Shown here: positions 2,898 through 24,322 of the stretch, piece after piece
Position numbering within the stretch: position 1 is the first letter of the stretch
Layout: every line of letters begins with the position of its first letter
Source: Verrucomicrobiota bacterium
Lineage (GTDB): Bacteria > Verrucomicrobiota > Verrucomicrobiia > Chthoniobacterales > UBA6821
Assembly (NCBI GenBank): GCA_008932965.1
Contig: WBXG01000022.1
Coordinates: forward strand, 1 to 25,775
Reading direction: 5' to 3'
DNA length: 25,775 bases
Translations under genes and position numbers: made by a program
Notes under the pieces: model-generated
What the model was told of the DNA's origin: nothing
Databases searched by the model: none
Seen by the model: the letters and a program-made list of their open reading frames with translations, nothing else

Positions 2898-2923
2898 GGT
2901 TTTTTTGTGATTGTTTTATATTA

Positions 2924-3057
2924 ACACACCGGTCTACTACGGAAGCAGAGAAGTCGGATCGATACTTTGTTGAGCCCGAAGTTTTCCATGGGCAGTAGGG
3001 ACTCCAACAGCAGTCGTCAGACTTCTTCACGTTTCTTATCCCATCAGATATTCGGGT
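2924..3057 (-). mobile_element. MITE-like repeat, copy R (inverted orientation, decayed relic)
   Basis: Its reverse complement aligns with copy C and the right half of copy B (GAAGTCTGACGAC..., GGAGTCCCTACTGCCC..., CTTCCGTAGTAGACCGGTGTG). One TIR is truncated at GGTGTG. The other carries an internal deletion (ACCCGAATAT/CTGATGG). TA follows at 3058-3059. Confidence 0.65.
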
Positions 3058-3246
3058 TAAGAAACGCTCCCACGAGAGTTTATTTTTGAAAAAATTTTTT
3101 TAACAAATCTATTATTTTATAATTTTTTATTTTTGGAGATCGTAGGAGTATGAACCATTCAGGCTAGAAGATAACTTAAAAAACAAAATGATTTTCATTT
3201 TTTGATCGACTAGTGTGTTAATCAAAAGCATTCTACTTGGCTCTTA

Positions 3247-3290: not shown

Positions 3291-3372
3291 GGGTAGGTAC
3301 CGAAGCGGTCAAACGGGGTGGACTGTAAATCCACTGGCTTAGCCTTCAAAGGTTCGAATCCTTTCCTGCCCA
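3291..3372 (+). tRNA. tRNA-Tyr (GTA anticodon), long variable arm, CCA not encoded
   Basis: Acceptor stem GGGTAGG/CCTGCCC with one G-U pair. Anticodon loop is CTGTAAA. It has a long extra arm and the T-loop GGTTCGAATCC. Confidence 0.9.
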
Positions 3373-3509
3373 GTTTATACCTGGTGATGCTCAAGCCAAG
3401 TCATCAATGCACTCTCCTTCAGTTATCAAGGAACTCGCAGCTCTAAGGAGCATAGTGATATGCTCTCCTCCATTGAAAAGGGGATAATTAAAAACGCTGA
3501 AATTTTTTA

Positions 3510-3792
3510 ACCCGAATATTTCATACTGATTGTGACAAGGAGGCCTCGAAAGGCTGATGGAGAACCACCGGCGGTCGGGAGACCGCAGGGGGAGACACTA
3601 CCACTGCCCTGCCCTATATCTTTAATCAGCTCTGAAAGGGCGAGATGAGCGGGAGCGAGCTAGTCAACGCAGACTACGTATTTTAAAGCAGAGCTGTGGG
3701 AGTCCCTACCGCCCAAGTCAAAATGGGAGTCTAACGCAGCATCAACTCTTGCTTCCCGGCTTTCTTAGGTGATCGATATGAAATATGTGGGT
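3510..3792 (+). mobile_element. MITE-like repeat, copy B (283 bp, enlarged variant)
   Basis: TIRs are ACCCGAATATTTCATACTGA (3510-3529) and TCGATATGAAATATGTGGGT (3773-3792). TA flanks both ends (3508-3509 and 3793-3794). It carries about 100 bp of extra central sequence compared with the 180-bp copies. Confidence 0.8.
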
Positions 3793-3867
3793 TATCACCC
3801 AGAGGCTTCCCTAATTCAAAAGGCCATTAGTCTGAAAGATCAGGGCCAGGCTCTGTGGCCTTCAGTA

Positions 3868-4829: not shown

Positions 4830-4901
4830 TGCCAAGGGGGAGAATTGAACTCCCGACCAAGGGCTTATGAGTCCCCTGCTCTACCTCTGAGCTACCTTGG
4901 C
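4830..4901 (-). tRNA. tRNA with CAT anticodon (Met, or Ile2 read via lysidine), CCA not encoded
   Basis: The reverse complement is GCCAAGG-TA-GCTC-AGAGGTA-GAGC-A-GGGGA-CTCATAA-GCCCT-TGGTC-GGGAG-TTCAATT-CTCCC-CCTTGGC-A. The anticodon arm and variable region (GACTCATAA...CTTGGTC) resemble E. coli tRNA-Ile2 as I remember it. Confidence 0.8.
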
Positions 4902-5058: not shown

Positions 5059-6594
5059 TTACAATGGAAGCATTTGATAATTTTTACACTCGTAAATAAT
5101 AAGGTGCTCACGTTGCTTGCCTCGTTGTAATGTTGCCTCACTTACAGGAGTAACGCTGGAGAAAGCACCAGAGATCGTCTCTGGGAGATCTTCAAGTAAT
5201 TCTGTTGTGATGTAGAGAGCTTGATGACCAATGAAGGGACTTGTTTTTGGTTCTTCCGTATAAAGTGGATCGATCACCCCTGAAGCTACTGCATCTGCAT
5301 AATGAGGCCACAACTGAAACTGGCTAGAGAAGGAGGGAGATTCTGGGGTGAAAACAGAAGGAGCTCCCTCAAGCTCAGAATAATGAATAGGAAGGAGGGC
5401 TCCTAAAAGAGAGGCGAGCTCTGGGGTCTGAGCAACAATAAAAGAGGGAGCAGAAGCTGCATTAGGATTAGTGGCAGCATCTTTTTCCAGCGCTCGCAAA
5501 CGAAGTAATTCTACAGCAACTTTTTGAACACCTCCTACCCCATGGTAGCTTGGAATCGACCAAGGCGAAGCGTTGTTAATAAAGGGAGCGATTTCCAAAA
5601 TCTGGAGTGCCGAAAAAATTGCTACCATAGAAAGCAGCACGAAACCATTTTTTGCTCTCCATTCTCTTTTAAGGAAAACGTCAACCACACTAGGAAGAAG
5701 CATCGCCCAAAGAACCAGCTGCAATCCGAATGAGGGGTTTTCATGTCCTACCCCCCCCAGACAAAACAAAAACGGAACGATTAATAAAAAAAGAAATGGG
5801 AGATTCTGTTTCTGATCTTTTTTTTCAGAAGAAAAAAGCAAATGACCCATGCTAAGAAAAGAGAATGTTAGTAGGAGCAAGAATTGCCAGAACCAAGGAG
5901 AAGATCGCACCATATCCCAGGAAGGAAAATCATAAGACCAAAAAGAACCCCATGTTATCTGACCCCACTGCAACCAGTCATGATGCATATTCCACCAAAT
6001 GGGCCCCACCCAGCTCAGGGCCAGTAGCAACAATGAAACTGTCATTCCCAGCCAGTCACACTTATTTTTTCTTAGAAGAAGGATTGCTAGGACTACTAGT
6101 AACAACCATCCCACCGAGTAGCTCACTTGAGTCGTCATTCCTAGGAGCAATCCATAAACGATCCAAGTAAAAAGACCTTTTTTATTATTACCAATTAAAA
6201 GCCAGCTCCACGAAAGTGTCGCGATCCAAAGAGTCGCTATAACCGTGGTTCCATCCATGATGAGAGCTGCTGAATTTGTTAGAGGAAGAAGATTCCATGC
6301 AAGCACACTCCAGAAGGCCACCCTCTCTCCATAAAGATTCCATGCAAGCCTCCAGAGAACAAAGGAGGCGAGCAACACAAGTAATGGAGATAGTAGTCTG
6401 ATACCCATTGGTGCAGATCCAGCGAGCCATGTGCTTAGTCTTATCAATGCTGGAACTCCAGCTGGTCCCTCTACAAAACCCCAGTCTAGACGTTGACCAC
6501 AAAGCAACAGGTATGCTTCAGTTCCATTTAAGAACCCTGTGGAAGCAAGAAGGAATCGACCTGCAGTTAATAGAGAAAGAATAATCCAGAGCAT
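5059..6594 (-). CDS. Polytopic GT-C glycosyltransferase (ArnT/PMT_2-like, GT39/GT83 type)
   Basis: 511-aa protein with many hydrophobic segments. The N-terminal loop motif TEAYLLLCGQRLDWGFVEGPAG resembles the (D/E)EAYY...WGY.D.PP loop of ArnT/PMT_2 enzymes. It is divergent from the ABC gene. Confidence 0.65.
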   Translation of the reverse strand: MLWIILSLLTAGRFLLASTGFLNGTEAYLLLCGQRLDWGFVEGPAGVPALIRLSTWLAGSAPMGIRLLSPLLVLLASFVLWRLAWNLYGERVAFWSVLAWNLLPLTNSAALIMDGTTVIATLWIATLSWSWLLIGNNKKGLFTWIVYGLLLGMTTQVSYSVGWLLLVVLAILLLRKNKCDWLGMTVSLLLLALSWVGPIWWNMHHDWLQWGQITWGSFWSYDFPSWDMVRSSPWFWQFLLLLTFSFLSMGHLLFSSEKKDQKQNLPFLFLLIVPFLFCLGGVGHENPSFGLQLVLWAMLLPSVVDVFLKREWRAKNGFVLLSMVAIFSALQILEIAPFINNASPWSIPSYHGVGGVQKVAVELLRLRALEKDAATNPNAASAPSFIVAQTPELASLLGALLPIHYSELEGAPSVFTPESPSFSSQFQLWPHYADAVASGVIDPLYTEEPKTSPFIGHQALYITTELLEDLPETISGAFSSVTPVSEATLQRGKQREHLIIYECKNYQMLPL

Positions 6595-6728
6595 AAGCGT
6601 CGCCTATCCTTACAACCGTTCCTTATGAGAAGCTATCATTTTTTAATAACCAGAGTAGGTCAAAAATGAGTCACACTTGAGTTTTATCTTTTTAAAAGGC
6701 AGAATCGTCCTTTTATCTGATTTTCCTC

Positions 6729-8507
6729 ATGACTCTCTATCTTCGTATTTTTCGTTATTTTCATCAATTTTTTTGGAAGACGCTTCTCTCCATTCTTCTG
6801 ATGACTGCAGGTGTGGGACTCAATTTGTTAAAGCCATGGCCATTCAAATATATCGTCGATGGAATTTTAGCCACGGAGGTCTCGGCCACAACGGCCTCGG
6901 CAAAAGCTTTTATGAGTACGTACTTGGGATGGACCTCACAAGTAGGAGCTGTGGTTTTTCTCTCAGCGACGCTCATTATTATCACACTACTATCGAGCCT
7001 CGTCACTCTTGTTACCAATATGCTTCTGCTTCGTATTGGCCTTCAAGGAACGTTAAAATTGCGCACCGATCTCTACAGTTGCCTGCAATCCTTGCCACTG
7101 AAGTATCATGATGCACGCCGCAGCAGCGATTCTTCTTACCGGGTTGCTTATGACTCACAATCAATTCAAACGATCTACAATAAAGGATTCTCAACCATCT
7201 TCAGCGCGCTCCTCATGTTAGTTGTCGCTTTTATCATCATGGTGAAGATGGATTGGAAACTGACCCTCATCTCACTTGTAGTACTTCCTCTTTTTGTGGT
7301 GAGCATGCGATATTATGCAGAGCGTATACGCAAAGAATCGACTTCGATTCAAGAGCGTGAGAGCGATCTCCTTGCAACAGCTCAAGAAGGTTTGAGCTCT
7401 ATAAGGATGATTCAATCCTTTGGTAGAGAAGCCTTCGAGGTCGATCAATTTCATCATCATGCCAAGCAAAGTTTAGAAGCCAACTTTCGCCTTAACATCA
7501 CCTCCACTCAAAGTGCCCTTGTAGTCGGCACCTTGATGGCACTGGGAACCTCCCTCATGTATGCGGTGGGGGCCCTACAGGTCTTACATTCGACACTCTC
7601 TCTTGGGGATCTCCTTGTGTTTGCCTCCTACCTCACGATGTTATATCAACCCATTGAGCAACTCACCTACACGGCATGGGCTCTTGAAGGAGCTGCAGCA
7701 GGGGCACAACGTTGCTTTGAAGTCCTTGATGAAAAAGAAGAAACTATCGATCTTCCAGAAGCAATTTCACTTAAACAGACCACAGGAGAAATTAGCTTCA
7801 CAGATGTTTCCTTCTCCTATACTCCAGCAAAAGCTGTTTTAAAAAATATTACTTTACTCATACCTCCTGGAGAGACAGTTGCTTTTGTTGGTGGCACAGG
7901 GACCGGCAAAAGCACTCTACTAAGTCTTATTCCGCGATTTTACGACCCCTGCAGTGGTCTTGTACGGATCGATGGACACGATCTTCGCACTCTGAGAAAA
8001 GAATCTGTTCGTCAACAAATCGGAATGGTCTTTCAAGAAACCGTTCTTTTTTCTTCTACCATTCATGAAAATATTGCCTATGGACGCGAAGGAGCCACTG
8101 ATGACGAAATCATCGAAGCAGCAAAACGCGCCAAAGCCTATGATTTCATTATGGGAATGCCTCATGGATTTGAAACTCATGTCGGAGAGCGTGGTGGACA
8201 CTTGAGTGTGGGCCAACGTCAACGCATCGGCATTGCCCGTGCTTTTCTTAAAAATGCACCTCTCCTGCTTCTCGATGAACCGACCTCAGCACTCGATCCA
8301 GAGACGGAAAAAGCCATCATGGAAACCATTTTTGAATTGATGCAAGGCCGCACGACCTTAATTGTTACCCACCGTATTTCAACAGTACATCGACTCAATC
8401 ATATTGTTGTTCTTAAAGAGGGTTCGATTTGCGAGCAAGGAAGTGGTGCTGAGCTACTGGCAGCAGGTGGAACCTATGCGCGTTTGTACAATGCAATGGG
8501 AAACTAA
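6729..8507 (+). CDS. ABC half-transporter, exporter type (MsbA/lipid-exporter-like, TMD-NBD fusion)
   Basis: 592 aa with an N-terminal six-helix-type TMD. Walker A is GGTGTGKST, the signature is LSVGQRQR and Walker B is LLLLDEPTSALD. Confidence 0.9.
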   Translation: MTLYLRIFRYFHQFFWKTLLSILLMTAGVGLNLLKPWPFKYIVDGILATEVSATTASAKAFMSTYLGWTSQVGAVVFLSATLIIITLLSSLVTLVTNMLLLRIGLQGTLKLRTDLYSCLQSLPLKYHDARRSSDSSYRVAYDSQSIQTIYNKGFSTIFSALLMLVVAFIIMVKMDWKLTLISLVVLPLFVVSMRYYAERIRKESTSIQERESDLLATAQEGLSSIRMIQSFGREAFEVDQFHHHAKQSLEANFRLNITSTQSALVVGTLMALGTSLMYAVGALQVLHSTLSLGDLLVFASYLTMLYQPIEQLTYTAWALEGAAAGAQRCFEVLDEKEETIDLPEAISLKQTTGEISFTDVSFSYTPAKAVLKNITLLIPPGETVAFVGGTGTGKSTLLSLIPRFYDPCSGLVRIDGHDLRTLRKESVRQQIGMVFQETVLFSSTIHENIAYGREGATDDEIIEAAKRAKAYDFIMGMPHGFETHVGERGGHLSVGQRQRIGIARAFLKNAPLLLLDEPTSALDPETEKAIMETIFELMQGRTTLIVTHRISTVHRLNHIVVLKEGSICEQGSGAELLAAGGTYARLYNAMGN

Positions 8508-8514
8508 TAACAGT

Positions 8515-9696
8515 ATGAAAAAAAAGAAAATTATCGTCTTAGGTTTTATGGGAGGATGCCCCATTGCAGGTGTTATCTGGCAGCACCTCCACTACATCAT
8601 AGGACTTCAGCGTCTGGGGCATGAAGTATTTTACGTGGAGGATACCTCCCGCTTTCCTTACAACCCTGCAACCTTTGATATTTCTGATGATTACAGTTAT
8701 GCAATTCAAACATTAACTGCATTATCCCAAGAATATAGCTTTGAAGGGAAATGGGCCTACTGTGCACGCTACCGTGATCCACTGGAAATAACTGGAATAG
8801 AGCACTCCAAACTCCTAGAGCTTTACCGCACATGTGATGCTGCTCTTAACATCTGTGGTTCCCATGATTTGAATGAGGATCTAAGTCTTATCCCCCATCT
8901 TCTCTACGTTGAAAGTGATCCAGGAGTAGAGCAAATTAAGATAGATCAAAAAAATCAAGCCACTATCTCTTTTCTTTCTAACCATGAACATCTTTTTACC
9001 TTTGGTGAGCATGTTGGAACGCCTTCTTTTGTAGTTCCAACACACGATTTCAAATGGCTTCCGACACGTCAACCCATTGTCACCTCCCTTTGGTGTAATA
9101 CTCCCGCTGCTCTACCACCAACCGAGGAAGCCCGCTACACCTCGATTTGCAATTGGTCCACTAGTGGCAAGAAAGATATTCTTTGGAATGACTCCAACTA
9201 CCTCTGGAGCAAGTCGCTGGAATTTTTAAAATTTGTCGAGGCTCCTAAAAAGTGTGGAGAAACTTTTGAACTTGCTTCTGATATCAAAAAGGAAGAGGAA
9301 CAGCAGCTTTTCTTAAACAACAACTGGCGATTGGTTTTACCACATGATTTAAGCACTCATTGGAAAAGCTATCATCATTATATCTCTTCTTCGAAGGGAG
9401 AATTCACCTGTGCCAAGGACCAATATGTTCGGCTTCATACCGGATGGTTTAGCGATCGGAGTGCTTGTTATTTGGCTGCAGGCCGGCCAGTCATCACCCA
9501 AGAAACTGGATTTAGCGATTTTTATGGCACTGGCTATGGGCTTGTTGGATTTTCTAGTATGGAAGAAATTGTAGAAGCCGCACGCTCCATCCAAGCTGAT
9601 TATGCAAAACATTCGCAAGCTGCTCTTGACATCGCTCGTGAGTACTTCGAAGCAGAAAAAGTACTTGAATCCTTGTTAGAGAGAGCGGGAGTTTAA
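8515..9696 (+). CDS. Uncharacterised GT-B-like protein, paralog 1 (putative glycosyltransferase)
   Basis: I trimmed the start to ATG 8515 (MKKKKIIVLGF...), 8 nt after the ABC stop. The longer ORF from 8362 overlaps the ABC gene. The N-terminus is GFMGGCPIAGV...LQRLGHEV. The C-terminus is GWFSDRSACYLAAGRPVITQETG, similar to the GT1/Glyco_trans_1_2 nucleotide-sugar lobe. It is a clear paralog of 9742-10935. Confidence 0.6.
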   Translation: MKKKKIIVLGFMGGCPIAGVIWQHLHYIIGLQRLGHEVFYVEDTSRFPYNPATFDISDDYSYAIQTLTALSQEYSFEGKWAYCARYRDPLEITGIEHSKLLELYRTCDAALNICGSHDLNEDLSLIPHLLYVESDPGVEQIKIDQKNQATISFLSNHEHLFTFGEHVGTPSFVVPTHDFKWLPTRQPIVTSLWCNTPAALPPTEEARYTSICNWSTSGKKDILWNDSNYLWSKSLEFLKFVEAPKKCGETFELASDIKKEEEQQLFLNNNWRLVLPHDLSTHWKSYHHYISSSKGEFTCAKDQYVRLHTGWFSDRSACYLAAGRPVITQETGFSDFYGTGYGLVGFSSMEEIVEAARSIQADYAKHSQAALDIAREYFEAEKVLESLLERAGV

Positions 9697-9741
9697 CCTG
9701 GATATTTCCTTTTTTAAAAAAAACCAAGAATACTCTTTAAA

Positions 9742-10935
9742 ATGTCTTTCCTCAAATCTACAAGAACTCCGCTACCACCTGTTTTTATTGGCTGTGGATT
9801 TGCAGCAAAATATCCGATGGGAGGTGGCAATTTTTCTGTTCCTTTGCAATACCTTCTTGGTCTCAAGCGTCTGGGTCGACGTGGCATCTGGCTTGAGGTG
9901 ATGCCGGAGACAGATGATCCTACACTCGATGCCTCGCGAGCACGGACCTTTACAAGACGCATGAGGGAGTATGACCTTGAATACTACCTCCTCATTCAAC
10001 CCAAAGCGTTTCAGAAAAAAAACCCGGAAGAATATCATCTCTCTCAAATGCAAAGCTTCGGAATGGATGTTTCTACATTACGTGAAGAGGCCAAGCATGG
10101 CATTCTTTTGAACCTGAGCTATTCTATCAAGGCCCCTCTCCTAACACTTTTTGAAAGGCGTTTACTCTGCAGCCTAGATCCAACAGAAGTTATTTTTTGG
10201 ATGAGTCGAATGGAGATGGGACAATCGTTTCATCATGAGTTCTGGTCAGTCGGCCTCTGCATGGAATCGATCGATTCCCGGATTCCAAAAGCCATTGTCC
10301 CTTGGAAATCTTTTTTTCCACTCGTGGATACAACCTTTCTTCAAGCACAACCCAAACCACTTTTTAAAACACGCCCCCGTTTTACTACTATTGGACAGTG
10401 GTACTGGGACGGAGCAATTGAAATCGAAGGAACCTATGTCGATTTTTCTAAACAAGCTGCCTTTGCTCCGTATCTCGAATTACCTCAAAAAGTTCCTAAT
10501 GCTATTTTTGAACTTGCCATGAATCTCAATAGTGACGATCCAGAACGAAAGCGCCTTCGTCAACTCGGATGGAACGTCGTCTCCCCTCACCGCTTGATGC
10601 CAACACCCAAGCGTTATTACGATTATCTTGCAGGTTCCCTTGCTGAATTTACTGCAGTCAAACTGGAAAGCAAAATGCAAAGTGGCTGGCTCAGTGACCG
10701 TGCAGCAGCCTACCTAGCCCAAGGTCGTCCAGTGATCACCGAACCAACAGGTGCAGAACAATTCCTTCCCAAAAAATCAAGTGAAAGTGGTCTTTTTTTT
10801 GTACAAACACTTGAGGAGGCCATTGAAGCATCACGCGAAGTCCTTCTTGACTGGCCCCATCTTTCGAAGTCAGCAAGAGCAACAGCAATCGAATATTTTG
10901 ATGCCTCACGAACATTGAAAAAAATATTGAACTAG
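9742..10935 (+). CDS. Uncharacterised GT-B-like protein, paralog 2 (putative glycosyltransferase)
   Basis: 397 aa. It shares LxGLxRLG, the F(T)TI..W block, the FELA block and GWLSDRAAAYLAQGRPVITEPTG with paralog 1. Its TAG stop (10933-10935) is formed at the junction with repeat copy C. Confidence 0.6.
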   Translation: MSFLKSTRTPLPPVFIGCGFAAKYPMGGGNFSVPLQYLLGLKRLGRRGIWLEVMPETDDPTLDASRARTFTRRMREYDLEYYLLIQPKAFQKKNPEEYHLSQMQSFGMDVSTLREEAKHGILLNLSYSIKAPLLTLFERRLLCSLDPTEVIFWMSRMEMGQSFHHEFWSVGLCMESIDSRIPKAIVPWKSFFPLVDTTFLQAQPKPLFKTRPRFTTIGQWYWDGAIEIEGTYVDFSKQAAFAPYLELPQKVPNAIFELAMNLNSDDPERKRLRQLGWNVVSPHRLMPTPKRYYDYLAGSLAEFTAVKLESKMQSGWLSDRAAAYLAQGRPVITEPTGAEQFLPKKSSESGLFFVQTLEEAIEASREVLLDWPHLSKSARATAIEYFDASRTLKKILN

Positions 10936-11113
10936 CTCGCATATTTCATACTGATCGTAACGAGAAGGCCGCGAAGGCTGATTGGGCAAGGCGAGCGATG
11001 AAGTCTGACGACATATGCTCGTGTGCACACTGCCTGAGGAGGACTTCGAGATCAACAAAGCATCTACCATGGATTTCCGGCTTCCGTAGATGATCGGTGT
11101 GAAATTTTCGGGC
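10935..11113 (+). mobile_element. MITE-like repeat, copy C (179 bp, complete)
   Basis: TIRs are GCTCGCATATTTCATACTGA and TCGGTGTGAAATTTTCGGGC. TA lies at 10933-10934 and 11114-11115. It sits inside the co-directional gene block, between paralog 2 and the SPT-like gene. Confidence 0.8.
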
Positions 11114-11231
11114 TAGAGCTTGCATTAGTCCTATTTTTGATTAGCATAATATTTTAGGATTTATTAAACACCACCAATCACACAAGTGGCACTCATTTTT
11201 GACTGTAACCGAGGAGCTCACCATCCACTAA

Positions 11232-12563
11232 ATGGCTAAAGATATTTTTAAAAAATGCCGTGAGTATCATGACTCACATGATGCACGAGCCCAGGGCTTT
11301 TACCCTTACTTTCGCTGCATCGATGATAGCTATGGTAATCATGTGATGTGTCAGGGTTCAGAGAAAATCATGATCGGTTCCAATAACTATCTTGGTCTCG
11401 CTCAAGATCCTCGTGTGATTGAAGCAGCATGTGACGCAACCCGACGTTTTGGATCAGGCTGTACTGGTTCACGTTTACTTAATGGAACAATCAGTCTTCA
11501 TGAAGAGCTTGAGGCTCAGCTTGCAAACTTTTTACAAAGAGAAGCGGTCCTTCTTTTCTCAACTGGCTTTTTTGCTAATCAAGGAGCCCTCACAGCACTT
11601 TTGGAGTCTGATGATTCCATTCTTTGTGATCGAGAAAACCATGCAAGCATTATAGAAGGATGCCAAACTTCTGTAGCACGATTGATTCCCTATCGTCACA
11701 ACTCTGCAGCGGCACTGCGGAACCGACTCAAACGACTTCCTGAGGAATCGGGAAAACTTGTGATCATGGATGGTGTCTTTAGCATGTCGGGTGATATTGC
11801 AGATCTCCCCACTTTATTACCAGTAATCAAAGAATATGATGGAATCACGTATGTGGATGAAGCCCATTCGCTGGGCGTGCTTGGCCCCCATGGCCGTGGG
11901 ACGGTCCATCACTTTGGAGTCAATGATGAAGTAGATATCGTGATGGGAACATTTTCCAAATCACTAGGTTCTATGGGTGGGTTTATTGCTGGATCTCACG
12001 AAATGATTGAGTTCTTAAAGCACAAGGCACGTTGCTTTATTTTCACAGCAGCACTTGCACCAGCTGTTGTTGGGGGCGTTCTCAAAGCCCTTGAAATCAT
12101 GCGTCAAGAACCAGAGCGAATTGATCAGCTTTGGGTCAATACAAGAAAAATGCATGAAGGATTTAAAGCGATTGGTTTTAATATCGGGTCGACACAAACC
12201 CCAATAGTTCCTATTTTGATTGGAAGTGAAGCCAAGGCCTTTATTTTTTCTCAAAGACTTTTTGAAGAAGGAATTTTTGCTACCCCTGCAATCTATCCCG
12301 CGGTACGCTATGGAGAAGCCATTGTTAGAACAAGCTTCATGTCGACACATACAGAAAATGATCTCGATTTGATATTAGAAATATTTGCAAAATTAGCCCG
12401 TGAACTAGGAACCTTCGATGATCCCGTCTATACAGAACCAGGCCGCCGCCGCAACGTTTTTGATTTTGCCTTGCCAGAGCACCATGGAGCTCAAGAAATT
12501 CGAGCAGATTCCGGAGTTGCTTCACTCGAAGAATCCGAACTTTACGCCACCGTTTCCCGGTAG
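11232..12563 (+). CDS. Alpha-oxoamine synthase, serine palmitoyltransferase-like (PLP-dependent acyltransferase)
   Basis: Motifs are FGSGCTGSRLLNGT, FSTGFFANQG, HASIIEGC, YRHNS..LRNRLKRLPEESGKLVIMDGVFSMSGDIA and DEAHSLGVLGPHGRG. The PLP-lysine motif is GTFSKSLG. KBL and BioF have GTLGKA/GTLSKA here, whereas Sphingomonas SPT has GTFSKS. A tail of about 45 aa lies beyond the family core. Confidence 0.8.
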   Translation: MAKDIFKKCREYHDSHDARAQGFYPYFRCIDDSYGNHVMCQGSEKIMIGSNNYLGLAQDPRVIEAACDATRRFGSGCTGSRLLNGTISLHEELEAQLANFLQREAVLLFSTGFFANQGALTALLESDDSILCDRENHASIIEGCQTSVARLIPYRHNSAAALRNRLKRLPEESGKLVIMDGVFSMSGDIADLPTLLPVIKEYDGITYVDEAHSLGVLGPHGRGTVHHFGVNDEVDIVMGTFSKSLGSMGGFIAGSHEMIEFLKHKARCFIFTAALAPAVVGGVLKALEIMRQEPERIDQLWVNTRKMHEGFKAIGFNIGSTQTPIVPILIGSEAKAFIFSQRLFEEGIFATPAIYPAVRYGEAIVRTSFMSTHTENDLDLILEIFAKLARELGTFDDPVYTEPGRRRNVFDFALPEHHGAQEIRADSGVASLEESELYATVSR

Positions 12564-13569
12564 TGTTGTTAAGCTCATCTCCCCTCAGGGAACCTTTTCA
12601 GAGCAACATGGAACAATTTTTCCATTCATTGCCTATGATCACGGTAAACCAGTAGGTCGAATTGCTGCGATTATTAATCGCTCTCATAATACCTATCACC
12701 AAGATAGAGTCGGCTTTTTTGGTTTTTTTGAGTGTGTGGATAATTCTCAAGTTGCCACTGCACTTTTTGATACAGCCGCAAACGTCCTTCGCGAAGAGGG
12801 AATGAGGCTCCTTCGAGGCCCCTATAATCCCTCGATTAACGATGATTGTGGATTACTTACCGAAGGGTTTCATGCTCCTACTTTCGTCTCAATGCCTTGG
12901 AATCCGCCTTATTATCGTGGACTCTATACTGAAGCTGGTCTTGAGTCCGTGCGGACCCTTTATGCATGGATGATCCCTCTTCAAGGAGAAACGCCAGCTC
13001 GGGTGAATAAAATTGTTGAACGGCTGCGCAAGCGTGCTCGTGTTAGTATTCGAAGCATTAATATGAAAAATCTCGAATATGAAATGACTGTTTTGCACCG
13101 TCTTTATAATGCTACACTGGATCGCAATTGGGGCTTCTACCCTATCTCATTAGAAGATCTTTTACATGCTGCGGAGGATTTAAAAGCTATTGCAGATCCA
13201 AGCCTCATTCTCTTTGCATGTATCGAAGATCGTGAAGTGGCCTTTAGTCTATCACTCCCTAATGTTAATGAACTCTTCCATGCAGCACGCCAGCGAAAAG
13301 GTCTTCTTCGTTTTTTAGAAATGGCATTGAGAGTTCAATTTCAAAAACCAAAAGATGCTCGCCTCTGTGTTCTAGGAGTCGACCCGGAACATCAAAACAC
13401 AGGTTTAAGTGCTCTTCTCTTCTATGAAGCCTACATTAGGACAAAAGCTCGCTATCAACGCTCTGAAGTTTCCTGGGTTGAAGCAAATAATACTGAAATT
13501 TTAGAGGGCGCCGCACTCATGGGTGGATGTAGGGATCGCACTTATGAGATTTTTGAAAAACCTCTTTAA
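12484..13569 (+). CDS. Large GNAT-superfamily N-acyltransferase-like protein (about 360-390 aa family, function unknown)
   Basis: The N-terminus FEQIPELL..NPNFTPPFPG and the block FFGFFECVD..QVA..LF..A resemble a widespread family annotated as 'GNAT family N-acetyltransferase'. I chose the start at ATG 12484. An alternative ATG at 12418 has a better AGGA Shine-Dalgarno. Either start overlaps the SPT-like gene (80 or 146 nt). Confidence 0.6.
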   Translation: MELKKFEQIPELLHSKNPNFTPPFPGSVVKLISPQGTFSEQHGTIFPFIAYDHGKPVGRIAAIINRSHNTYHQDRVGFFGFFECVDNSQVATALFDTAANVLREEGMRLLRGPYNPSINDDCGLLTEGFHAPTFVSMPWNPPYYRGLYTEAGLESVRTLYAWMIPLQGETPARVNKIVERLRKRARVSIRSINMKNLEYEMTVLHRLYNATLDRNWGFYPISLEDLLHAAEDLKAIADPSLILFACIEDREVAFSLSLPNVNELFHAARQRKGLLRFLEMALRVQFQKPKDARLCVLGVDPEHQNTGLSALLFYEAYIRTKARYQRSEVSWVEANNTEILEGAALMGGCRDRTYEIFEKPL

Positions 13570-13645
13570 CCCGGATGTTTCATACTAATCGTGACGAGGA
13601 GGTTGTGAAGTCTGATGGGGTGAGGCGGGCGATTAAAAAGTCTCT
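13569..13645 (+). mobile_element. MITE-like repeat, copy D (left half only, about 77 bp)
   Basis: ACCCGGATGTTTCATACTAATCGTGACGAGGAGGTTGTGAAGTCTGATGGGGTGAGGCGGGCGAT aligns with the left arm of copy C. There is no right TIR. TA at 13567-13568 is part of the TAA stop of the GNAT gene. Confidence 0.65.
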
Positions 13646-13657
13646 TCACAAAAAAAA

Positions 13658-14035
13658 CTATTTTTCTTTCTTTTGCTTGTCTGTTTTTGATGGAGGAGTC
13701 TTTTCTTTAAGAGGGCTCTTATGAGCAACTGTCGATTTTACTTCGCTCGTGGCTGAAGATTTTTTTTCTGAAGCAGGTGCTGTTGATACTTCTGAAGAAG
13801 TATCACTTTTAGCAGCACTTTTGTAACCTTCACTTCGATAATCAGTGATATAAAAACCAGATCCTTTGAAAATAAGACCGGCCCCTGCTCCAATTAATCT
13901 TTTCACTTTTCCTTTGCCCCATTTTTTCATCTGACAATGTTCTTTAGGACAGGTGCTATAAACATCAGAAGACATGGTTTGAAAAGCATCAAAATGATGG
14001 TGGCATTTGTGACATTCGTATTCGTAGGTAGGCAT
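13658..14035 (-). CDS. FmdB-family zinc-ribbon protein
   Basis: It starts MPTYEYECHKCHHHFD, with a second CxxxxC pair and the conserved GSGFYITDYRS motif. The C-terminal tail is low-complexity and S/K-rich. Confidence 0.8.
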   Translation of the reverse strand: MPTYEYECHKCHHHFDAFQTMSSDVYSTCPKEHCQMKKWGKGKVKRLIGAGAGLIFKGSGFYITDYRSEGYKSAAKSDTSSEVSTAPASEKKSSATSEVKSTVAHKSPLKEKTPPSKTDKQKKEK

Positions 14036-14183
14036 GGAATCAAGGGTCTAAGATAAATGATGGGAAAAAGGATTTCTATTTGAAAACGATTTTTAGGATG
14101 ATCTTACGTGTATAGGGTATTAAATTAAGAAGTGCAGGTTAGAATCATTGAATTTTTTCTTAGTATAAGGCCTCAGATGGAAG

Positions 14184-15224
14184 CTATCTACCAATGTCTC
14201 TCCTATCAGGAATGAGTTCTGCTATTTGAACTGCATTGAGGGCTGCTCCTTTGAGGAGCTGATCACCACAGACCCAAAAAGAGAGACCATGAGGAGTGGT
14301 ATAATCGACACGTAGCCTTCCTACATGGCATTGATCACATCCTTGTACCTCTAGAGGCATCGGATAAAGCCCCTTGGAAGGATCATCAATAAGATCTATT
14401 CCAGGAGCTGCTATTAAAGCATCTTGAGCTTTTGCTAATGAGAGAGGATTTTCAAATTCTGCATGAATCGAAATGGAATGGGCACGGTAAACAGGAACCC
14501 GAACGCATGTAACAGAAGCCTTCAGATTGGGAAGATGCATGATACGCTGGCTTTCATTCTGAAATTTCATTTCCTCTCGTGTGTAGCCATTATCTAAAAA
14601 AGAATCAATATGTGGCAGAAGATTAAAAGCAATTTGGTAGGGAAAGACGTCTGGCTTTACCTCTTTTTTGTGAGCTAATGCCACTACTTGGTTTTCTAAC
14701 TCTTCGATACCACGAGTCCCAATTCCAGAAACTGCTTGATAGGTCGAAGCAATCACACGAGATAATCCAAATTGTTGGTGCAAGGGATAGAGTGCCATGA
14801 GGGCAATTAATGTGGAGCAATTAGGATTAGCAATGATACCTTGATGAGTGAGGATATCAGCACCATTAATTTCAGGTATGACGAGCGGAACTGAAGGATC
14901 CATTCGGAAAGCTGAGGAATTATCAACCACGACAGCACCCGCACGTACTGCATCAGAAACATGTTTTTCTGAAATGGTTCCCCCTGCACTAAAAAATGCT
15001 ATATCGATTTCATCAAAACTTTCTTTTTCTAAAACCTCTACTGGGATCGATTGCCCCCGAAAAGACAATGATCTTCCCGCTGAGCGAGATGAAGCAAGCA
15101 ACCGAAGTTTTTTTATTGGAAAGTGACGCCGTTCTAAGACCCTTAGGAGTTCCTCTCCGACTGCTCCAGTAGCACCAACAATAGCTACATTTTTTGCTAA
15201 GCTAGATGATTTTTGTAAAAACAT
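14184..15224 (-). CDS. asd: Aspartate-semialdehyde dehydrogenase
   Basis: 346 aa. It has the N-terminal Rossmann motif VAIVGATGAVG, the active-site motif ANPNCSTL, and QAVSG.G. Confidence 0.92.
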   Translation of the reverse strand: MFLQKSSSLAKNVAIVGATGAVGEELLRVLERRHFPIKKLRLLASSRSAGRSLSFRGQSIPVEVLEKESFDEIDIAFFSAGGTISEKHVSDAVRAGAVVVDNSSAFRMDPSVPLVIPEINGADILTHQGIIANPNCSTLIALMALYPLHQQFGLSRVIASTYQAVSGIGTRGIEELENQVVALAHKKEVKPDVFPYQIAFNLLPHIDSFLDNGYTREEMKFQNESQRIMHLPNLKASVTCVRVPVYRAHSISIHAEFENPLSLAKAQDALIAAPGIDLIDDPSKGLYPMPLEVQGCDQCHVGRLRVDYTTPHGLSFWVCGDQLLKGAALNAVQIAELIPDRRDIGR

Positions 15225-16195: not shown

Positions 16196-18457
16196 TTAAA
16201 AGTCTTTAGATGTAGTGGCATCATAAAGAAATCGATTCCAATGATTTATTTCATCACTTGCTAAATTATATTTATCCTGAAAATTCTCATGAAATTTTGG
16301 AGGAAGTTTTGAAATGGCGTTGGATTGTACATCCCTTGCTCTTGATAATAAGTAAATAGCTTTTTTTATGTTATATAATCTCGACTGACTTAAATAATCA
16401 GGTTCCTCATGCATCACATCAGAATCATCATCGCTAGAATTAGATGACCAATCTTCATGAAAATAACAATTTTCTGTAGCATAAGCGGCGATTAGATGGG
16501 CTTCTTCTCCCTCACTCCAGCTTATTTCACTTTCCCAAAAAATAATTTCATATTCTACTTCCTCTAACCAATCATGCAGCATTTGATCATTATCTTGATG
16601 AGAGACGTGAGCTGAAAGTTCGTTGATTATTTTAGAAATAACTCCTTTCACAGAGCGGTAGGATGCTTGAGTATCATAGATTGCATCTCTTGCTTTCATC
16701 CAATTTAGATGAAATTTTTCTTCAAGTGAATCTCTATGAGTTGCTTCACAACTCAACAATTGAGCGACTTTTTCATGGCCTAATGCCCGGCGAAAAAGCC
16801 CCTCAATATTCCAGTAATCAAGGCTATTTTTAGCTTCAACAATCTCATCTGAAAATTCTTTCAAGCATGAATCATTACGAAGAGCTAACTGATGCCTATG
16901 CACGATATCTTTCCACAAATGAGCTAAATGTTCTGCAGAGTCAATGGCCTGGTTAAAAGAGTCCTCAAGAACTTCCAAAGAAGGAAGATCTGAAAAATCC
17001 AGTTCCTTCATCATTGATTCAAAGTCTGTTTGGTCTTTTTGCTCGAGTTCTTCTGCTTTTTTCAAATCAATTTGAATTTCCCAATAATCTAGCCAAAAGT
17101 CCCCTTTCCAAAAATTCTTTTTTTCCTCCACAGAACCTAGAAGCTGTTTCCAACCTTGAATACTCTTTTCTGAATTATTGTCTCTCTGTTCCATCATAAT
17201 CTCATAATGAATCATCAGTGTGAGCTTGTCCCACGAAACTAATACTCTGTCATGAGATTCCTTACTGGTATTCCATAGGCTTCTTATTTCTAAAGGCTTT
17301 AATTCAGAGGAAGTTTTCTTTAAAAATTGATTTTTAAAATCATGATATGTTTGTTCTTCACGAGTTATGAGATTTTTAAAAATTCTTTCAACTGATTTTT
17401 TTTTCTCTTGCTTTGAAAGTATGCGCCTTGAGGTAAGAGAGAGTATTTCTTTTTTATTTTTTAGAATATCCATCGTTTCATGATATTTTCCAAAAATCTG
17501 TTGCTCTTCTTCGAACTGGCGAGCCATCGCAATCCTCTGGAATGCCTTCGCTTTTAACCCTGGTAATTCACTTTGAATAGAATCTATCTCATTACTTCCT
17601 ACGAAACTTATTCTGATATCCTCATCAGATCTAGCAGCTGTTCCTAAAGGAGGGGATATTCTTCTTGTAGTTTCACCTGTTTCACTATTTGGAATCTTAC
17701 TGAGGTCAGTAATAGAATCTGGCATTCTAGGATGTTGAGAATTTCCTCTTAAAATGGAGTCGTTGTTGATTGGCTTTTTTACTACTACAATTCCACCTGC
17801 CAAAAGACTCACCACAAGTCCAATGATCTCGTCGACAAATTCATTAGCTACTATTATCGGACTGGGGCCAACTTGAGGAATAATGCTTGAGCTATTGTGA
17901 AACTCATAATGTATTGCATTAGATTTAAGATCATGATCTATTGAATAAGATGAAATTTTATTTGTATTATTGAATGCAGAAAAATTAATTTCATCATTGT
18001 TTGCATCGATGCACTGATGAGTTTTTATCTCATCTCTTTCATATTCACTGAGTGATAAGGCACTAGATTGCCCCCTTTTTATATTGAACCAATGAGAATA
18101 TTGGAATGCATCATTATAACTCATCACAGGGAATCTATACTCGCTTTGATGTAGTAGAGGTTGATAAACGTAATACCCAGGGGAACCAAAACGGACAATA
18201 GGAACTCTTATGATTCCTGAGGGTTCCTGTTCAAAAATTCCATAAGGATCCTGCGATACCTCTTCATTTAAAAAATCACAATAATCAAGAATCTTTTGTG
18301 AATTTTCATTTTCTAAATAATCATCATTCTTAGAAGCCGTGGATGGCTGATCTGCTCTTACTTGAATGACAAAAAGAGAGCTTGAAGCAATCAAAGTTAA
18401 GAGTAAAAAAGCAGCAAAGTATTTTTTTTTTAAAAACAGATATCTGTTCATAGTCAA
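16196..18457 (-). CDS. Orphan 753-aa membrane-anchored protein (signal peptide, about 190-aa exo-domain, one TM segment, about 525-aa Trp-rich helical region)
   Basis: This long uninterrupted ORF begins with the signal or anchor sequence FAAFLLLTLIASSSLFVIQVRA. A mid-protein TM segment reads IIGLVVSLLAGGIVVV. I recognise no family. By eye the DNA is more AT-rich than its neighbours. Confidence 0.6.
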   Translation of the reverse strand: MTMNRYLFLKKKYFAAFLLLTLIASSSLFVIQVRADQPSTASKNDDYLENENSQKILDYCDFLNEEVSQDPYGIFEQEPSGIIRVPIVRFGSPGYYVYQPLLHQSEYRFPVMSYNDAFQYSHWFNIKRGQSSALSLSEYERDEIKTHQCIDANNDEINFSAFNNTNKISSYSIDHDLKSNAIHYEFHNSSSIIPQVGPSPIIVANEFVDEIIGLVVSLLAGGIVVVKKPINNDSILRGNSQHPRMPDSITDLSKIPNSETGETTRRISPPLGTAARSDEDIRISFVGSNEIDSIQSELPGLKAKAFQRIAMARQFEEEQQIFGKYHETMDILKNKKEILSLTSRRILSKQEKKKSVERIFKNLITREEQTYHDFKNQFLKKTSSELKPLEIRSLWNTSKESHDRVLVSWDKLTLMIHYEIMMEQRDNNSEKSIQGWKQLLGSVEEKKNFWKGDFWLDYWEIQIDLKKAEELEQKDQTDFESMMKELDFSDLPSLEVLEDSFNQAIDSAEHLAHLWKDIVHRHQLALRNDSCLKEFSDEIVEAKNSLDYWNIEGLFRRALGHEKVAQLLSCEATHRDSLEEKFHLNWMKARDAIYDTQASYRSVKGVISKIINELSAHVSHQDNDQMLHDWLEEVEYEIIFWESEISWSEGEEAHLIAAYATENCYFHEDWSSNSSDDDSDVMHEEPDYLSQSRLYNIKKAIYLLSRARDVQSNAISKLPPKFHENFQDKYNLASDEINHWNRFLYDATTSKDF

Positions 18458-18504
18458 AAGGAATAAAATAATCTTCTATGATATTAGTATGACTACATTA
18501 ACTT

Positions 18505-19293
18505 TTATTTTTTCTTATTAAATTTTTGATAATAATAATGAATGGCTTCAGCAGTACCTTCTCCTGCCTCATATTGTGAAATACGGCCATTAGCTTTCTG
18601 GACGATTGCCTTAACCTCACGATGGGCATTGGACGGACACGCAACCATACTGGCAACCTCCCCGTCTAACATAGAAAGATCATTATAATGATCACCAATC
18701 GCTAAAATATTATTTGCTTGAAGGGACAAAAGAGAACTTAACTCTCTCAAAACTTTACCCTTATCATAATGCTTATGACAAAATCTCATATAATGACTAC
18801 TTCTTTGAAACGAGAAATTATTAGGGCGATGAGGAAGAGAATCCACCTGCAATACTATCTCATCTAGTAATTCCTCTTTCTCAGCAATCAACATTTCGGG
18901 AACCCCGTCATGATTTTCGAGAAGGGTGGTTTCATCTGAATATTGAGCAATAAGATTTTTAATCTGCTCAAAAAAACGCCCACTTTTTCTGAATAGTTCG
19001 GCATGTAGAGAATCACAATGTCGATTCCACTCTTCAAAGGGTTTCCACCCTTTTTTTTTGTTATGACGATACAGGTGTCTCTCACTAGTGATAATATAAT
19101 CAGGTTCTACTGGGGCATTAAAATATTCTAAACCTTCCAGTAAATATAAAAAATCTCTTCCTGTATTGATCGACCAAACAATTTCATCATTTTTGATTTT
19201 TTCTAGAGCTAGTGCCAAACAATCAACACAGGACTCATGAGGAGTATATCCAATAGAGGTTCCATCAAAATCTGTGGCCAGTAGCTTTAGCAT
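18505..19293 (-). CDS. HAD-superfamily hydrolase (Cof/IIB-like phosphatase)
   Basis: Motif I is ATDFDGT, there is a NTGR-containing motif, and motif IV is GDHYNDLSM. The protein is 262 aa. Confidence 0.75.
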   Translation of the reverse strand: MLKLLATDFDGTSIGYTPHESCVDCLALALEKIKNDEIVWSINTGRDFLYLLEGLEYFNAPVEPDYIITSERHLYRHNKKKGWKPFEEWNRHCDSLHAELFRKSGRFFEQIKNLIAQYSDETTLLENHDGVPEMLIAEKEELLDEIVLQVDSLPHRPNNFSFQRSSHYMRFCHKHYDKGKVLRELSSLLSLQANNILAIGDHYNDLSMLDGEVASMVACPSNAHREVKAIVQKANGRISQYEAGEGTAEAIHYYYQKFNKKK

Positions 19294-21319: not shown

Positions 21320-21341
21320 GATTTATGCTCATATTTTCTTC

Positions 21342-21523
21342 AACCGTGTATTTCATACCGAAGTGTTATGAGACTATGAGCGAAGCTGATGAGTACAAGG
21401 AGAGCAAAGGGTTGTGATGCCGGGCTGTATCTCTTGCTACTGCCCGAGGAAGACTTAGAGCTTGGGCGCAGCATCCAGCTGGCTTCCCGACCTCCGCAGT
21501 AGATTGGTACGAAATATGCGGGT
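21342..21523 (+). mobile_element. MITE-like repeat, copy E (182 bp, complete, closest to copy A)
   Basis: TIRs are AACCGTGTATTTCATACCGA and TTGGTACGAAATATGCGGGT. The interior AGTACAAGGAG.GC.AAGG.TTG.GATGCCGGGCTGTAT...CTGCCCGAGGAAGACTT.GAGCT is nearly identical to copy A. TA is present at the right end only (21524-21525). It lies between the divergent MFS and catalase genes. Confidence 0.8.
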
Positions 21524-21578
21524 TAAGTAGAGGAGTATCAAATATACAGGTTAGTATTCACAATAAATTCCAAGTGCT

Positions 21579-24189: not shown

Positions 24190-24205
24190 GGTTATTTTTT
24201 AAGTT

Positions 24206-24247
24206 AGCCCGAATATTTCATGCTGAAGGGTTGTTAGAGACTCCTCT
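24206..24247 (+). repeat. MITE-like repeat fragment F (left TIR plus about 20 nt)
   Basis: GCCCGAATATTTCATGCTGAAGGGTTGTTAGAGACT matches the left end of copy E. It is preceded by TA (24204-24205). It is cut off exactly at the 3' end of tRNA-Lys. Confidence 0.6.

Positions 24248-24322
<75 letters not shown>

Follow-up and report, generated by a model that had tools for sequence, protein, structure and literature searches.

In Caulobacter crescentus, ceramide is reportedly made by a pathway that includes CC_1162, CC_1154 and CC_1164, said to have been described by Olea-Ozuna et al. in 2021 and by Stankeviciute et al. in 2022. The bacterial ceramide pathway, Spt-bCerS(-CerR), has been published (PMC11087976; PMC11324152), and its spt, bCerS and cerR genes are "often found clustered" (PMC11334938). 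In Caulobacter, CC_1154, which belongs to the gene run CC_1160...CC_1153, encodes the N-acyltransferase bCerS, and CC_1164 encodes the "NADPH-dependent epimerase/dehydrogenase" CerR (PMC11324152). Spt-like genes are already on record from 22 metagenome-assembled genomes (MAGs) of Verrucomicrobiota (PMC11334938), and an inner-membrane flippase for bacterial sphingolipids has not yet been identified (PMC11087976). Here we analyzed contig WBXG01000022.1 (assembly GCA_008932965.1; Verrucomicrobiota, Chthoniobacterales, UBA6821), a stretch of 25,775 nucleotides (nt) hereafter called the window, which carries a synthase and an acyltransferase of this type downstream of an exporter gene and two glycosyltransferase-like genes. 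Our analysis indicates that this region likely consists of two independently conserved modules that are neighbours in one Chthoniobacterales sub-clade: module A (5059-10935), a putative glycoconjugate assembly and export unit, and module B (11232-13569), which would start the known ceramide pathway.

The region contains five co-directional genes, encoding an ATP-binding cassette (ABC) half-transporter, two paralogous proteins that we call PAR1 and PAR2, an alpha-oxoamine synthase (AOS) and a GNAT-type acyltransferase, together with a glycosyltransferase (GT) gene of the GT-C type that diverges from the ABC gene across 134 nt of intergenic DNA. The ABC stop codon is separated from PAR1 by 7 nt, PAR1 from PAR2 by 45 nt and PAR2 from the AOS gene by 296 nt, and the AOS and GNAT genes overlap. 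This map agrees with that of a preliminary description of the locus, which was made from the sequence alone and whose spacings proved exact. Promoter and terminator scans of positions 6400-14200 gave predictions at chance level only and are thus uninformative on operon structure.

The first gene of module B (11232-12563, plus strand) encodes a 443 amino acid protein with an Aminotran_1_2 domain (Pfam, E = 4e-56), which on sequence grounds we assign to the Spt-like alpha-oxoamine synthases of the serine palmitoyltransferase (SPT) family, with serine condensation as its predicted reaction. Its top NCBIfam model is SerpalmtaseCFB, describing the Bacteroidota-type SPT (483 bits, under the cut-off of 640), and its top match in the PDB is the SPT of Sphingobacterium multivorum (SmSPT; 3a2b and 8guh; E = 6e-118, 46.5% identity), followed by a Thermus AOS (ThAOS), the Sphingomonas SPT (SpSPT; 38%), E. 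coli Kbl (36%), a cysteate acyltransferase and BioF (28%). In bit scores, SPT reached 398 in this search and cysteate acyltransferase 242. The residues H137, D209, H212, K243 (the lysine of the GTFSKS motif that binds the PLP cofactor, pyridoxal phosphate) and R366 are all present and aligned to SPT residues, and the protein is 40% identical to the Spt of a Roseomonas sphingolipid cluster. It shares with SmSPT, its best match of solved structure, the GTFSKS lysine motif, the catalytic His/Asp/His and the lack of an arginine at the position of Arg378 of S. paucimobilis; it differs from SmSPT in that identity is limited to 46.5%, the score lies under the SerpalmtaseCFB cut-off and the window protein carries an extra C-terminal tail. 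The DNA that encodes this extension of approximately 50 residues also carries, in a different reading frame, the start of the GNAT gene (12418-12563).

A neighbour-joining tree was built from the window AOS, E. coli BioF and Kbl, ThAOS, the two crystallised SPTs, the Roseomonas Spt and 53 AOS proteins encoded next to GNAT homologues; HemA and CqsA were left outside the tree and judged by hidden Markov model (HMM) score only. The window AOS and SmSPT formed a clade without Kbl, ThAOS and BioF in 197 of 200 bootstraps, and a clade widened to SpSPT and the Roseomonas Spt was recovered in 156 of 200. Since this clade leaves out BioF and KBL, the nesting inside either family that had been proposed as grounds for abandoning an SPT-like identity was not observed, and the SPT-like synthase of the preliminary description is borne out by HMM scores, PDB ranking and tree alike. 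The same three lines of evidence rule out a KBL or BioF identity for this protein, and a sulfonolipid-type cysteate acyltransferase identity was judged unlikely, as the cysteate match is weaker than the SPT match.

The second gene of module B (plus strand, ending at 13569) encodes a protein with a weak Pfam match to Acetyltransf_1. PDB sequence searches with this protein and with PAR1 returned nothing useful, and a fold search was needed: the AlphaFold model of the GNAT protein (pLDDT 83.6) shows a tandem GNAT similar to MshD and to glucosamine N-acetyltransferase (Foldseek, E down to 3e-13). The gene had been annotated from ATG 12484, which gives an overlap of 80 nt with the AOS gene. The overlap itself stands, while the LPC(Q/R)(S/T) motif conserved in this family is encoded upstream of 12484, so that the true start is probably TTG 12460 or ATG 12418, judging from the sequence, and the overlap would be 104-146 nt.

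The GNAT protein belongs to a family of 1157 database matches from many phyla, and we examined its neighbourhood in 80 genome loci, 73 of which were informative, with upstream sequence of 1.3 kb or more. In 54 of these 73 the gene immediately before the GNAT gene, in the same orientation, encodes an Spt-like AOS, which fits the proposal that the GNAT protein is the partner N-acyltransferase of the synthase. Of the 80 loci, 39 also encode in their flanks a protein of approximately 330 amino acids from the NAD-dependent epimerase family, and in 20 its gene comes right after the GNAT gene; among these 20 are most Chthoniobacterales as well as a Sulfitobacter and a Bdellovibrionales MAG. The same AOS-GNAT-epimerase triad is found on a Streptomyces plasmid. 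In addition, the GNAT protein aligns over its full length with Roseomonas mucosa WP_019463172.1 (31% identity, E = 5e-47), which is flanked by LptF/LptG and an NTP (nucleoside triphosphate) transferase and has in its vicinity a diacylglycerol (DAG)-kinase-family gene, a CDP-alcohol phosphatidyltransferase, Spt, an acyl carrier protein (ACP), a short-chain dehydrogenase/reductase (SDR) and a fatty acyl-AMP ligase. This order mirrors Caulobacter CC_1160...CC_1153, including CC_1156-CC_1153, where CC_1154 has the same flanking genes, and places the Roseomonas homologue at the position of cerS (CC_1154). Based on the AOS/reductase gene order, the position of the Roseomonas homologue and the tandem-GNAT fold, we assign the GNAT protein to the bCerS family; the earlier statement that this GNAT family has no assigned function was therefore wrong.

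Several features of the bCerS-family loci should be mentioned. In ten of them (L034, L036, L052, L054, L055, L067, L071, L072, L075 and L080; L-numbers label the relatives' loci that were compared with the window), a PAP2_3/PAP2_C membrane protein is encoded approximately 1-3 kb downstream of the GNAT gene. Such a gene comes after the Spt-bCerS-CerR triad in Gemmatimonadota and some other MAGs, and its product, which we take to be sphingomyelin-synthase-like, is a candidate head-group transferase. Loci of the Ignavibacteria/Bacteroidota type have a class IV aminotransferase gene instead. On a metagenome contig of the Joint Genome Institute (JGI) from a relative at approximately 50% identity (L179), a 374 amino acid protein with no Pfam match is encoded between bCerS and the CerR-type reductase (11108-12232) and could be an additional component of the sphingolipid pathway. 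Homologues of the bCerS family at approximately 30% identity are carried by plasmids of Rubrobacter, Streptomyces, Ensifer, Rhizobium and Pseudomonas, a condensation-domain protein follows the triad on the Streptomyces plasmid, and the plasmid search with the GNAT protein also matched three Escherichia records. The 358-kb Roseomonas mucosa plasmid NZ_CP147881.1 (L083/L091) holds a complete Caulobacter-like sphingolipid cluster at 265.7-295 kb, whose acpR and cerR are separated by inserted genes for a GT39 (GT-C), a Wzx-type flippase, a GT4 and an ELM1-type glycosyltransferase. The Roseomonas bCerS homologue is annotated as "hypothetical protein", and as "dATP pyrophosphohydrolase" in other records.

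The window lacks the local CerR-type reductase that would complete an Spt-bCerS-CerR cluster. In relatives, the reductase gene lies directly downstream of the GNAT gene (L004, L005, L006, L009, L010, L016, L019, L088 and L093). In the window, only 88 nt separate the GNAT stop codon from a convergent zinc-ribbon gene, and these begin with a repeat fragment (13567-13625) that starts at the stop codon and occupies the position of the reductase. A tblastn search of the whole window with a relative's reductase found no remnant (best E = 5.7), and no epimerase-family or other reductase is encoded among the window ORFs (open reading frames). CerR is presumably encoded elsewhere in the genome. The preliminary description had cautioned that a 3-keto reductase, an ACP and an acyl-ACP synthetase were all missing; the first of these absences is real, and the other two pose no problem, since ACP and acyl-ACP synthetase (AcpR, AasR) are specific to proteobacterial sphingolipid clusters and their absence is expected. 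Neither is among the conserved neighbours of the 80 GNAT genome loci.

Module B resembles the Caulobacter ceramide pathway in that its Spt-like AOS gene precedes a gene for a GNAT-type N-acyltransferase from the bCerS family; relatives add the epimerase-family reductase, and the predicted chemistry (3-keto base, N-acylation, reduction) is identical. The differences are that CerR, AcpR and AasR are absent from the window, that the window Spt belongs to the Bacteroidota/Sphingobacterium type (46.5% identity), not the Sphingomonas type (38%), and that bCerS begins 80-146 nt before the end of the Spt gene, with the C-terminal extension of Spt described above. The core of the locus is therefore an already known pathway in another lineage, and its description as undescribed does not hold, given that both the pathway and Spt-like genes in Verrucomicrobiota MAGs had been published (PMC11334938 for the latter). 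In the accessible literature we found no description of the ABC-PAR1 family, of ceramide genes adjoining an ABC/GT-B module or of a local loss of CerR.

Module A contains, next to the divergent GT-C gene, the ABC gene (6729-8507, plus strand), which encodes a 592 amino acid half-transporter of the exporter type, with a transmembrane domain followed by a nucleotide-binding domain (ABC_membrane and ABC_tran), resembling MsbA and PglK. Its top NCBIfam model is MsbA_lipidA (TIGR02203; 431 bits vs a cut-off of 602), and NF008381 gives 352 vs 867; the protein thus has generic exporter architecture and scores below the MsbA equivalog level. PAR1 (8515-9696, plus strand; 393 amino acids) and PAR2 (9742-10935, plus strand; 397 amino acids) are 28-30% identical end to end and have invariant motifs in common. 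The AlphaFold model of PAR1 (pLDDT 85.3, pTM 0.89) has a GT-B fold, and Foldseek matched it to PimA, BshA, MshA, tll1591 and HepE (E down to 1e-10, TM scores 0.5-0.6), suggesting a divergent GT4-like glycosyltransferase; for PAR2 the GT-B fold is taken from its alignment to PAR1 and not from a model of its own. Pfam detects Glyco_trans_1_2 in PAR1 only weakly (20 bits, under the cut-off), and PAR2 has no Pfam or NCBIfam match. PAR1 shows neither an EX7E motif nor a Glycos_transf_1 match, and the region of the motif reads GWFSDRxAxYLAxGRPV. The two proteins had been introduced as orphan GT-B-like paralogs. The fold is upheld, whereas "orphan" is contradicted by 7335 database matches to PAR1, many at approximately 70% identity, which fall into 4139 clusters at 50% identity (representative library).

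Distant relatives contain natural fusions of ABC with PAR1, of ABC, PAR1 and GT2, and of PAR1 with a GT2, a GT4 or a sulfotransferase, and the window ABC protein aligns at 35% identity over its full length with the ABC part of one ABC-PAR1 fusion (P0261). These fusions indicate that ABC and PAR1 act as a unit that builds and exports some glycoconjugate. The GT-C gene (5059-6594, minus strand) encodes a polytopic, PMT_2/ArnT-like protein of 511 amino acids (PMT_2 at residues 44-195, E = 1.5e-10, 42 bits vs a gathering cut-off of 26.1), and its place beside the ABC gene is shared only by L099 (61% identity) and L088 (52%), the closest relatives. No specific similarity was found between the GT-C protein and the GT39 of the Roseomonas sphingolipid cluster.

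It should be noted that module A resembles the Campylobacter Pgl system (PglA/J/H of the GT4 type, the ABC flippase PglK and the GT-C enzyme PglB) and MsbA/ArnT lipid A modification in its architecture, which combines cytoplasmic GT-B enzymes with a half-size type-IV ABC exporter and a polytopic GT-C. It differs in that its ABC protein scores far under the PglK and MsbA cut-offs, so that membership in either family is not established, and in that its GT-B proteins lack EX7E and match Glyco_trans_1_2 weakly. If module A acted on ceramide, Sgt1/Sgt2 and the flippase CC_1166 of Caulobacter would be its proposed functional analogues, CC_1166 being a Wzx-type flippase and the window exporter an ABC protein.

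Comparative genomics was used to examine how far the five genes travel together, with look-ups seeded from GNAT or PAR1 homologues. The complete order ABC-PAR1-PAR2-AOS-GNAT is found in the window and in three more lineages (L088/89, L092 and L093/94), whose block proteins are 69-89% identical to those of the window. In each of the four, PAR2 directly precedes the AOS gene, even with an opposite-strand gene between PAR1 and PAR2, and a CerR-type reductase follows the GNAT gene in two of the other three (L088 and L093). Beyond these lineages the two halves separate. Among 80 metagenome loci with PAR1 homologues (58-82% identity), inspected within 10 kb, ABC adjoins PAR1 in nearly all and PAR2 comes next in the closer relatives, and AOS, GNAT or reductase genes are found in none. 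The closest of these, L099 (PAR1 82% identical), shares DUF5069-S20-GT-C|ABC-PAR1-PAR2 with the window, has a DEAD-box helicase gene after PAR2 and lacks genes for Spt, bCerS and CerR over the same 10 kb; L085-L087 likewise have the ABC-PAR1-PAR2 trio without Spt. Conversely, ABC or PAR genes occur at none of the 80 GNAT-centred genome loci. The block therefore does recur, in four related lineages, and it is not conserved as a unit outside them; the single make-glycosylate-export pathway that had been proposed is not backed by this comparison, ABC-PAR1(-PAR2) being conserved on its own.

The opposite-strand ORFs between PAR1 and PAR2 are unrelated insertions in two relatives (L088, 11221-13134, minus strand, 637 amino acids; L093, 6321-7382, minus strand, 353 amino acids), have no Pfam match and part ABC-PAR1 from PAR2-Spt-bCerS-CerR.

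Since each module is conserved separately, two modules side by side are the simplest reading, and we regard it as likely. Module B would open the bacterial ceramide pathway with two enzymes. A soluble Spt-like synthase that depends on PLP would join serine (or a close analogue of it) to a long-chain acyl thioester, giving a 3-keto long-chain base, which a tandem-GNAT enzyme of the bCerS family would N-acylate to 3-oxo-(dihydro)ceramide. The reductase for the third step, of the CerR type (NAD(P)H epimerase family), follows bCerS in most relatives; here it would presumably be encoded outside the window, in which a repeat fragment stands at its position. Module A would assemble and export a glycoconjugate with its two divergent GT-B-like paralogues and type-IV ABC exporter, to which a periplasm-facing GT-C transferase would be added in the closest relatives. 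Module B might hand its ceramide over to module A, whose ABC and GT-B genes might glycosylate or flip it; ABC/PAR may thus be functionally coupled with Spt-bCerS. Four points weigh against the two-module reading as given here: the AOS misses the NCBIfam SPT equivalog cut-off (483 vs 640 bits); its amino acid specificity is not readable from sequence; the bCerS assignment rests on the syntenic Roseomonas homologue and on gene order, not on the sequence of CC_1154; and the coupling of the modules could be underplayed, as the block has been kept in four lineages despite insertions, with PAR2 always before the AOS gene. With regard to the third point, a homologue search seeded with the Roseomonas protein gave Acetobacteraceae-type matches, with no Caulobacter entry among the best 120.

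A closer coupling would be expected if the locus encoded one integrated pathway, in which the (oxo)ceramide made by Spt and bCerS is glycosylated on the cytoplasmic side by PAR2 and/or PAR1, flipped by the ABC protein and further decorated in the periplasm by the GT-C enzyme. Such a pathway would account for five co-directional, tightly spaced genes, for a block found in four lineages and for the constant position of PAR2 right before the AOS gene, which holds also when PAR1 and PAR2 are split; it would also suit the vacant role of a bacterial sphingolipid flippase (PMC11087976) and the GT-C (GT39), flippase and GT4 genes of the Roseomonas cluster. We nevertheless consider it rather doubtful, because Spt/bCerS genes accompany PAR1 in 0/80 metagenome loci, the closest relative L099 included, ABC/PAR genes accompany bCerS in 0/80 genome loci, the fusions of PAR1-family proteins to GT2, GT4 and sulfotransferase are typical of polysaccharide assembly, the window GT-C is not specifically similar to the Roseomonas GT39 and a repeat element breaks the PAR2-AOS junction. 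A variant of this idea, in which the ceramide genes were recruited into an ABC/GT-B operon in one sub-clade, PAR2 (perhaps with PAR1) being new ceramide glycosyltransferases and the ABC protein a sphingolipid flippase, seems to us unlikely; if it were true, the window lineage, which has no local CerR, might export a glycolipid based on 3-oxo-ceramide.

At the other extreme, module A could serve envelope housekeeping unrelated to ceramide, with the ABC protein as an MsbA-type lipid A/lipopolysaccharide (LPS)-core flippase or a PglK-like one, the PAR proteins as glycosyltransferases of the core or of a lipid-linked glycan and the GT-C as an ArnT/PglB-like enzyme. MsbA_lipidA is indeed the top NCBIfam model of the ABC protein, ABC and PAR1 are highly conserved among Chthoniobacterales from soil and freshwater (58-84% identity), L085 and L092 have LpxL-like and LpxK genes at a distance of a few kb, and the layout of GT4-like GT-B, ABC flippase and GT-C fits the logic of Campylobacter Pgl. 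However, the ABC protein falls short of both MsbA cut-offs, Pfam and NCBIfam place neither PAR1 nor PAR2 in an LPS-core glycosyltransferase family and the GT-C is tied to the module in the closest relatives only, so that this explanation, too, appears somewhat improbable. As for module B, its product might be an N-acyl amino lipid other than a sphingolipid, such as a cysteate-derived sulfonolipid of the capnine/sulfobacin type or a 1-deoxy base formed with alanine or glycine. The AOS does score under the SPT equivalog cut-off, cysteate-C-fatty acyltransferases belong to the same superfamily and are among its PDB matches, and related clusters make 1-deoxy-ceramides (PMC11334938). Against this, the SPT match far exceeds the cysteate acyltransferase match (398 vs 242 bits), the clade with a characterised SPT has 98% bootstrap support, cysteate synthase was not found nearby and the conserved partners of the family (CerR-type reductase and PAP2 enzyme) are those of sphingolipid clusters, which makes a non-sphingolipid product very unlikely.

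The repeat at the two junctions is an intergenic element of approximately 185 nt, resembling a miniature inverted-repeat transposable element, with terminal inverted repeats of approximately 22 nt (TAACCCGCATATTTCATACTGA...TCAGTATGAAATATGAGGGTTA) and at least five copies in the 25.8-kb window: 158-345, ~2909-3064 (reverse), 3505-3796, 10933-11117 (full length) and 21339-21527, in addition to fragments at 13567-13625 and 24205-24247. The copies were defined by alignment and from the repeat tables (families D1, D2, D5 and D8; inverted pairs I1, I5, I19 and I21). Its ends coincide exactly with stop codons, namely TAG 10933 of PAR2, TAA 13567 of the GNAT gene and 321-323 of a minus-strand phosphorylase gene. 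The insertion at 10933-11117 explains the 296-nt gap between PAR2 and the AOS gene, which measures 23-190 nt in relatives without the element, and confirms that the only large gap of the block is filled by a repeat. The element also occurs in L099 (at 4881, 18561 and 19453) and has no match in Rfam.

Elsewhere in the window, the Rfam search found only three tRNA genes, at 3291-3372 (plus strand), 4830-4901 (minus strand) and 24251-24322 (minus strand); the first and the last of these adjoin repeat copies. A low-GC island (16196-19293; GC 34-35% vs approximately 43% elsewhere), which may have been horizontally acquired, contains a 753 amino acid ORF without a Pfam match adjoining an S6PP/HAD hydrolase gene. 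The nearest public relatives of the window are Chthoniobacterales MAGs, and the identical sequence is present in a JGI metagenome contig. Judging from its name, this Ga-prefixed contig presumably derives from a freshwater-lake sample. The host of the window is an uncultured freshwater member of Chthoniobacterales, the habitat being taken from the contig name.

Taken together, a freshwater lineage of Chthoniobacterales can be added to the predicted bacterial sphingolipid producers, whose number is growing. The locus indicates that an Spt-bCerS pair can occur without an adjacent CerR, with a mobile repeat here exactly at that junction, and ABC-PAR1 emerges as a large uncharacterised family that merits an annotation of its own. 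A more useful lead comes from the repeated placement of Spt-bCerS next to a conserved ABC-exporter/GT-B module, as seen in four lineages: taking into account that the flippase of bacterial sphingolipids is still being sought, this ABC protein is a concrete candidate flippase to test.

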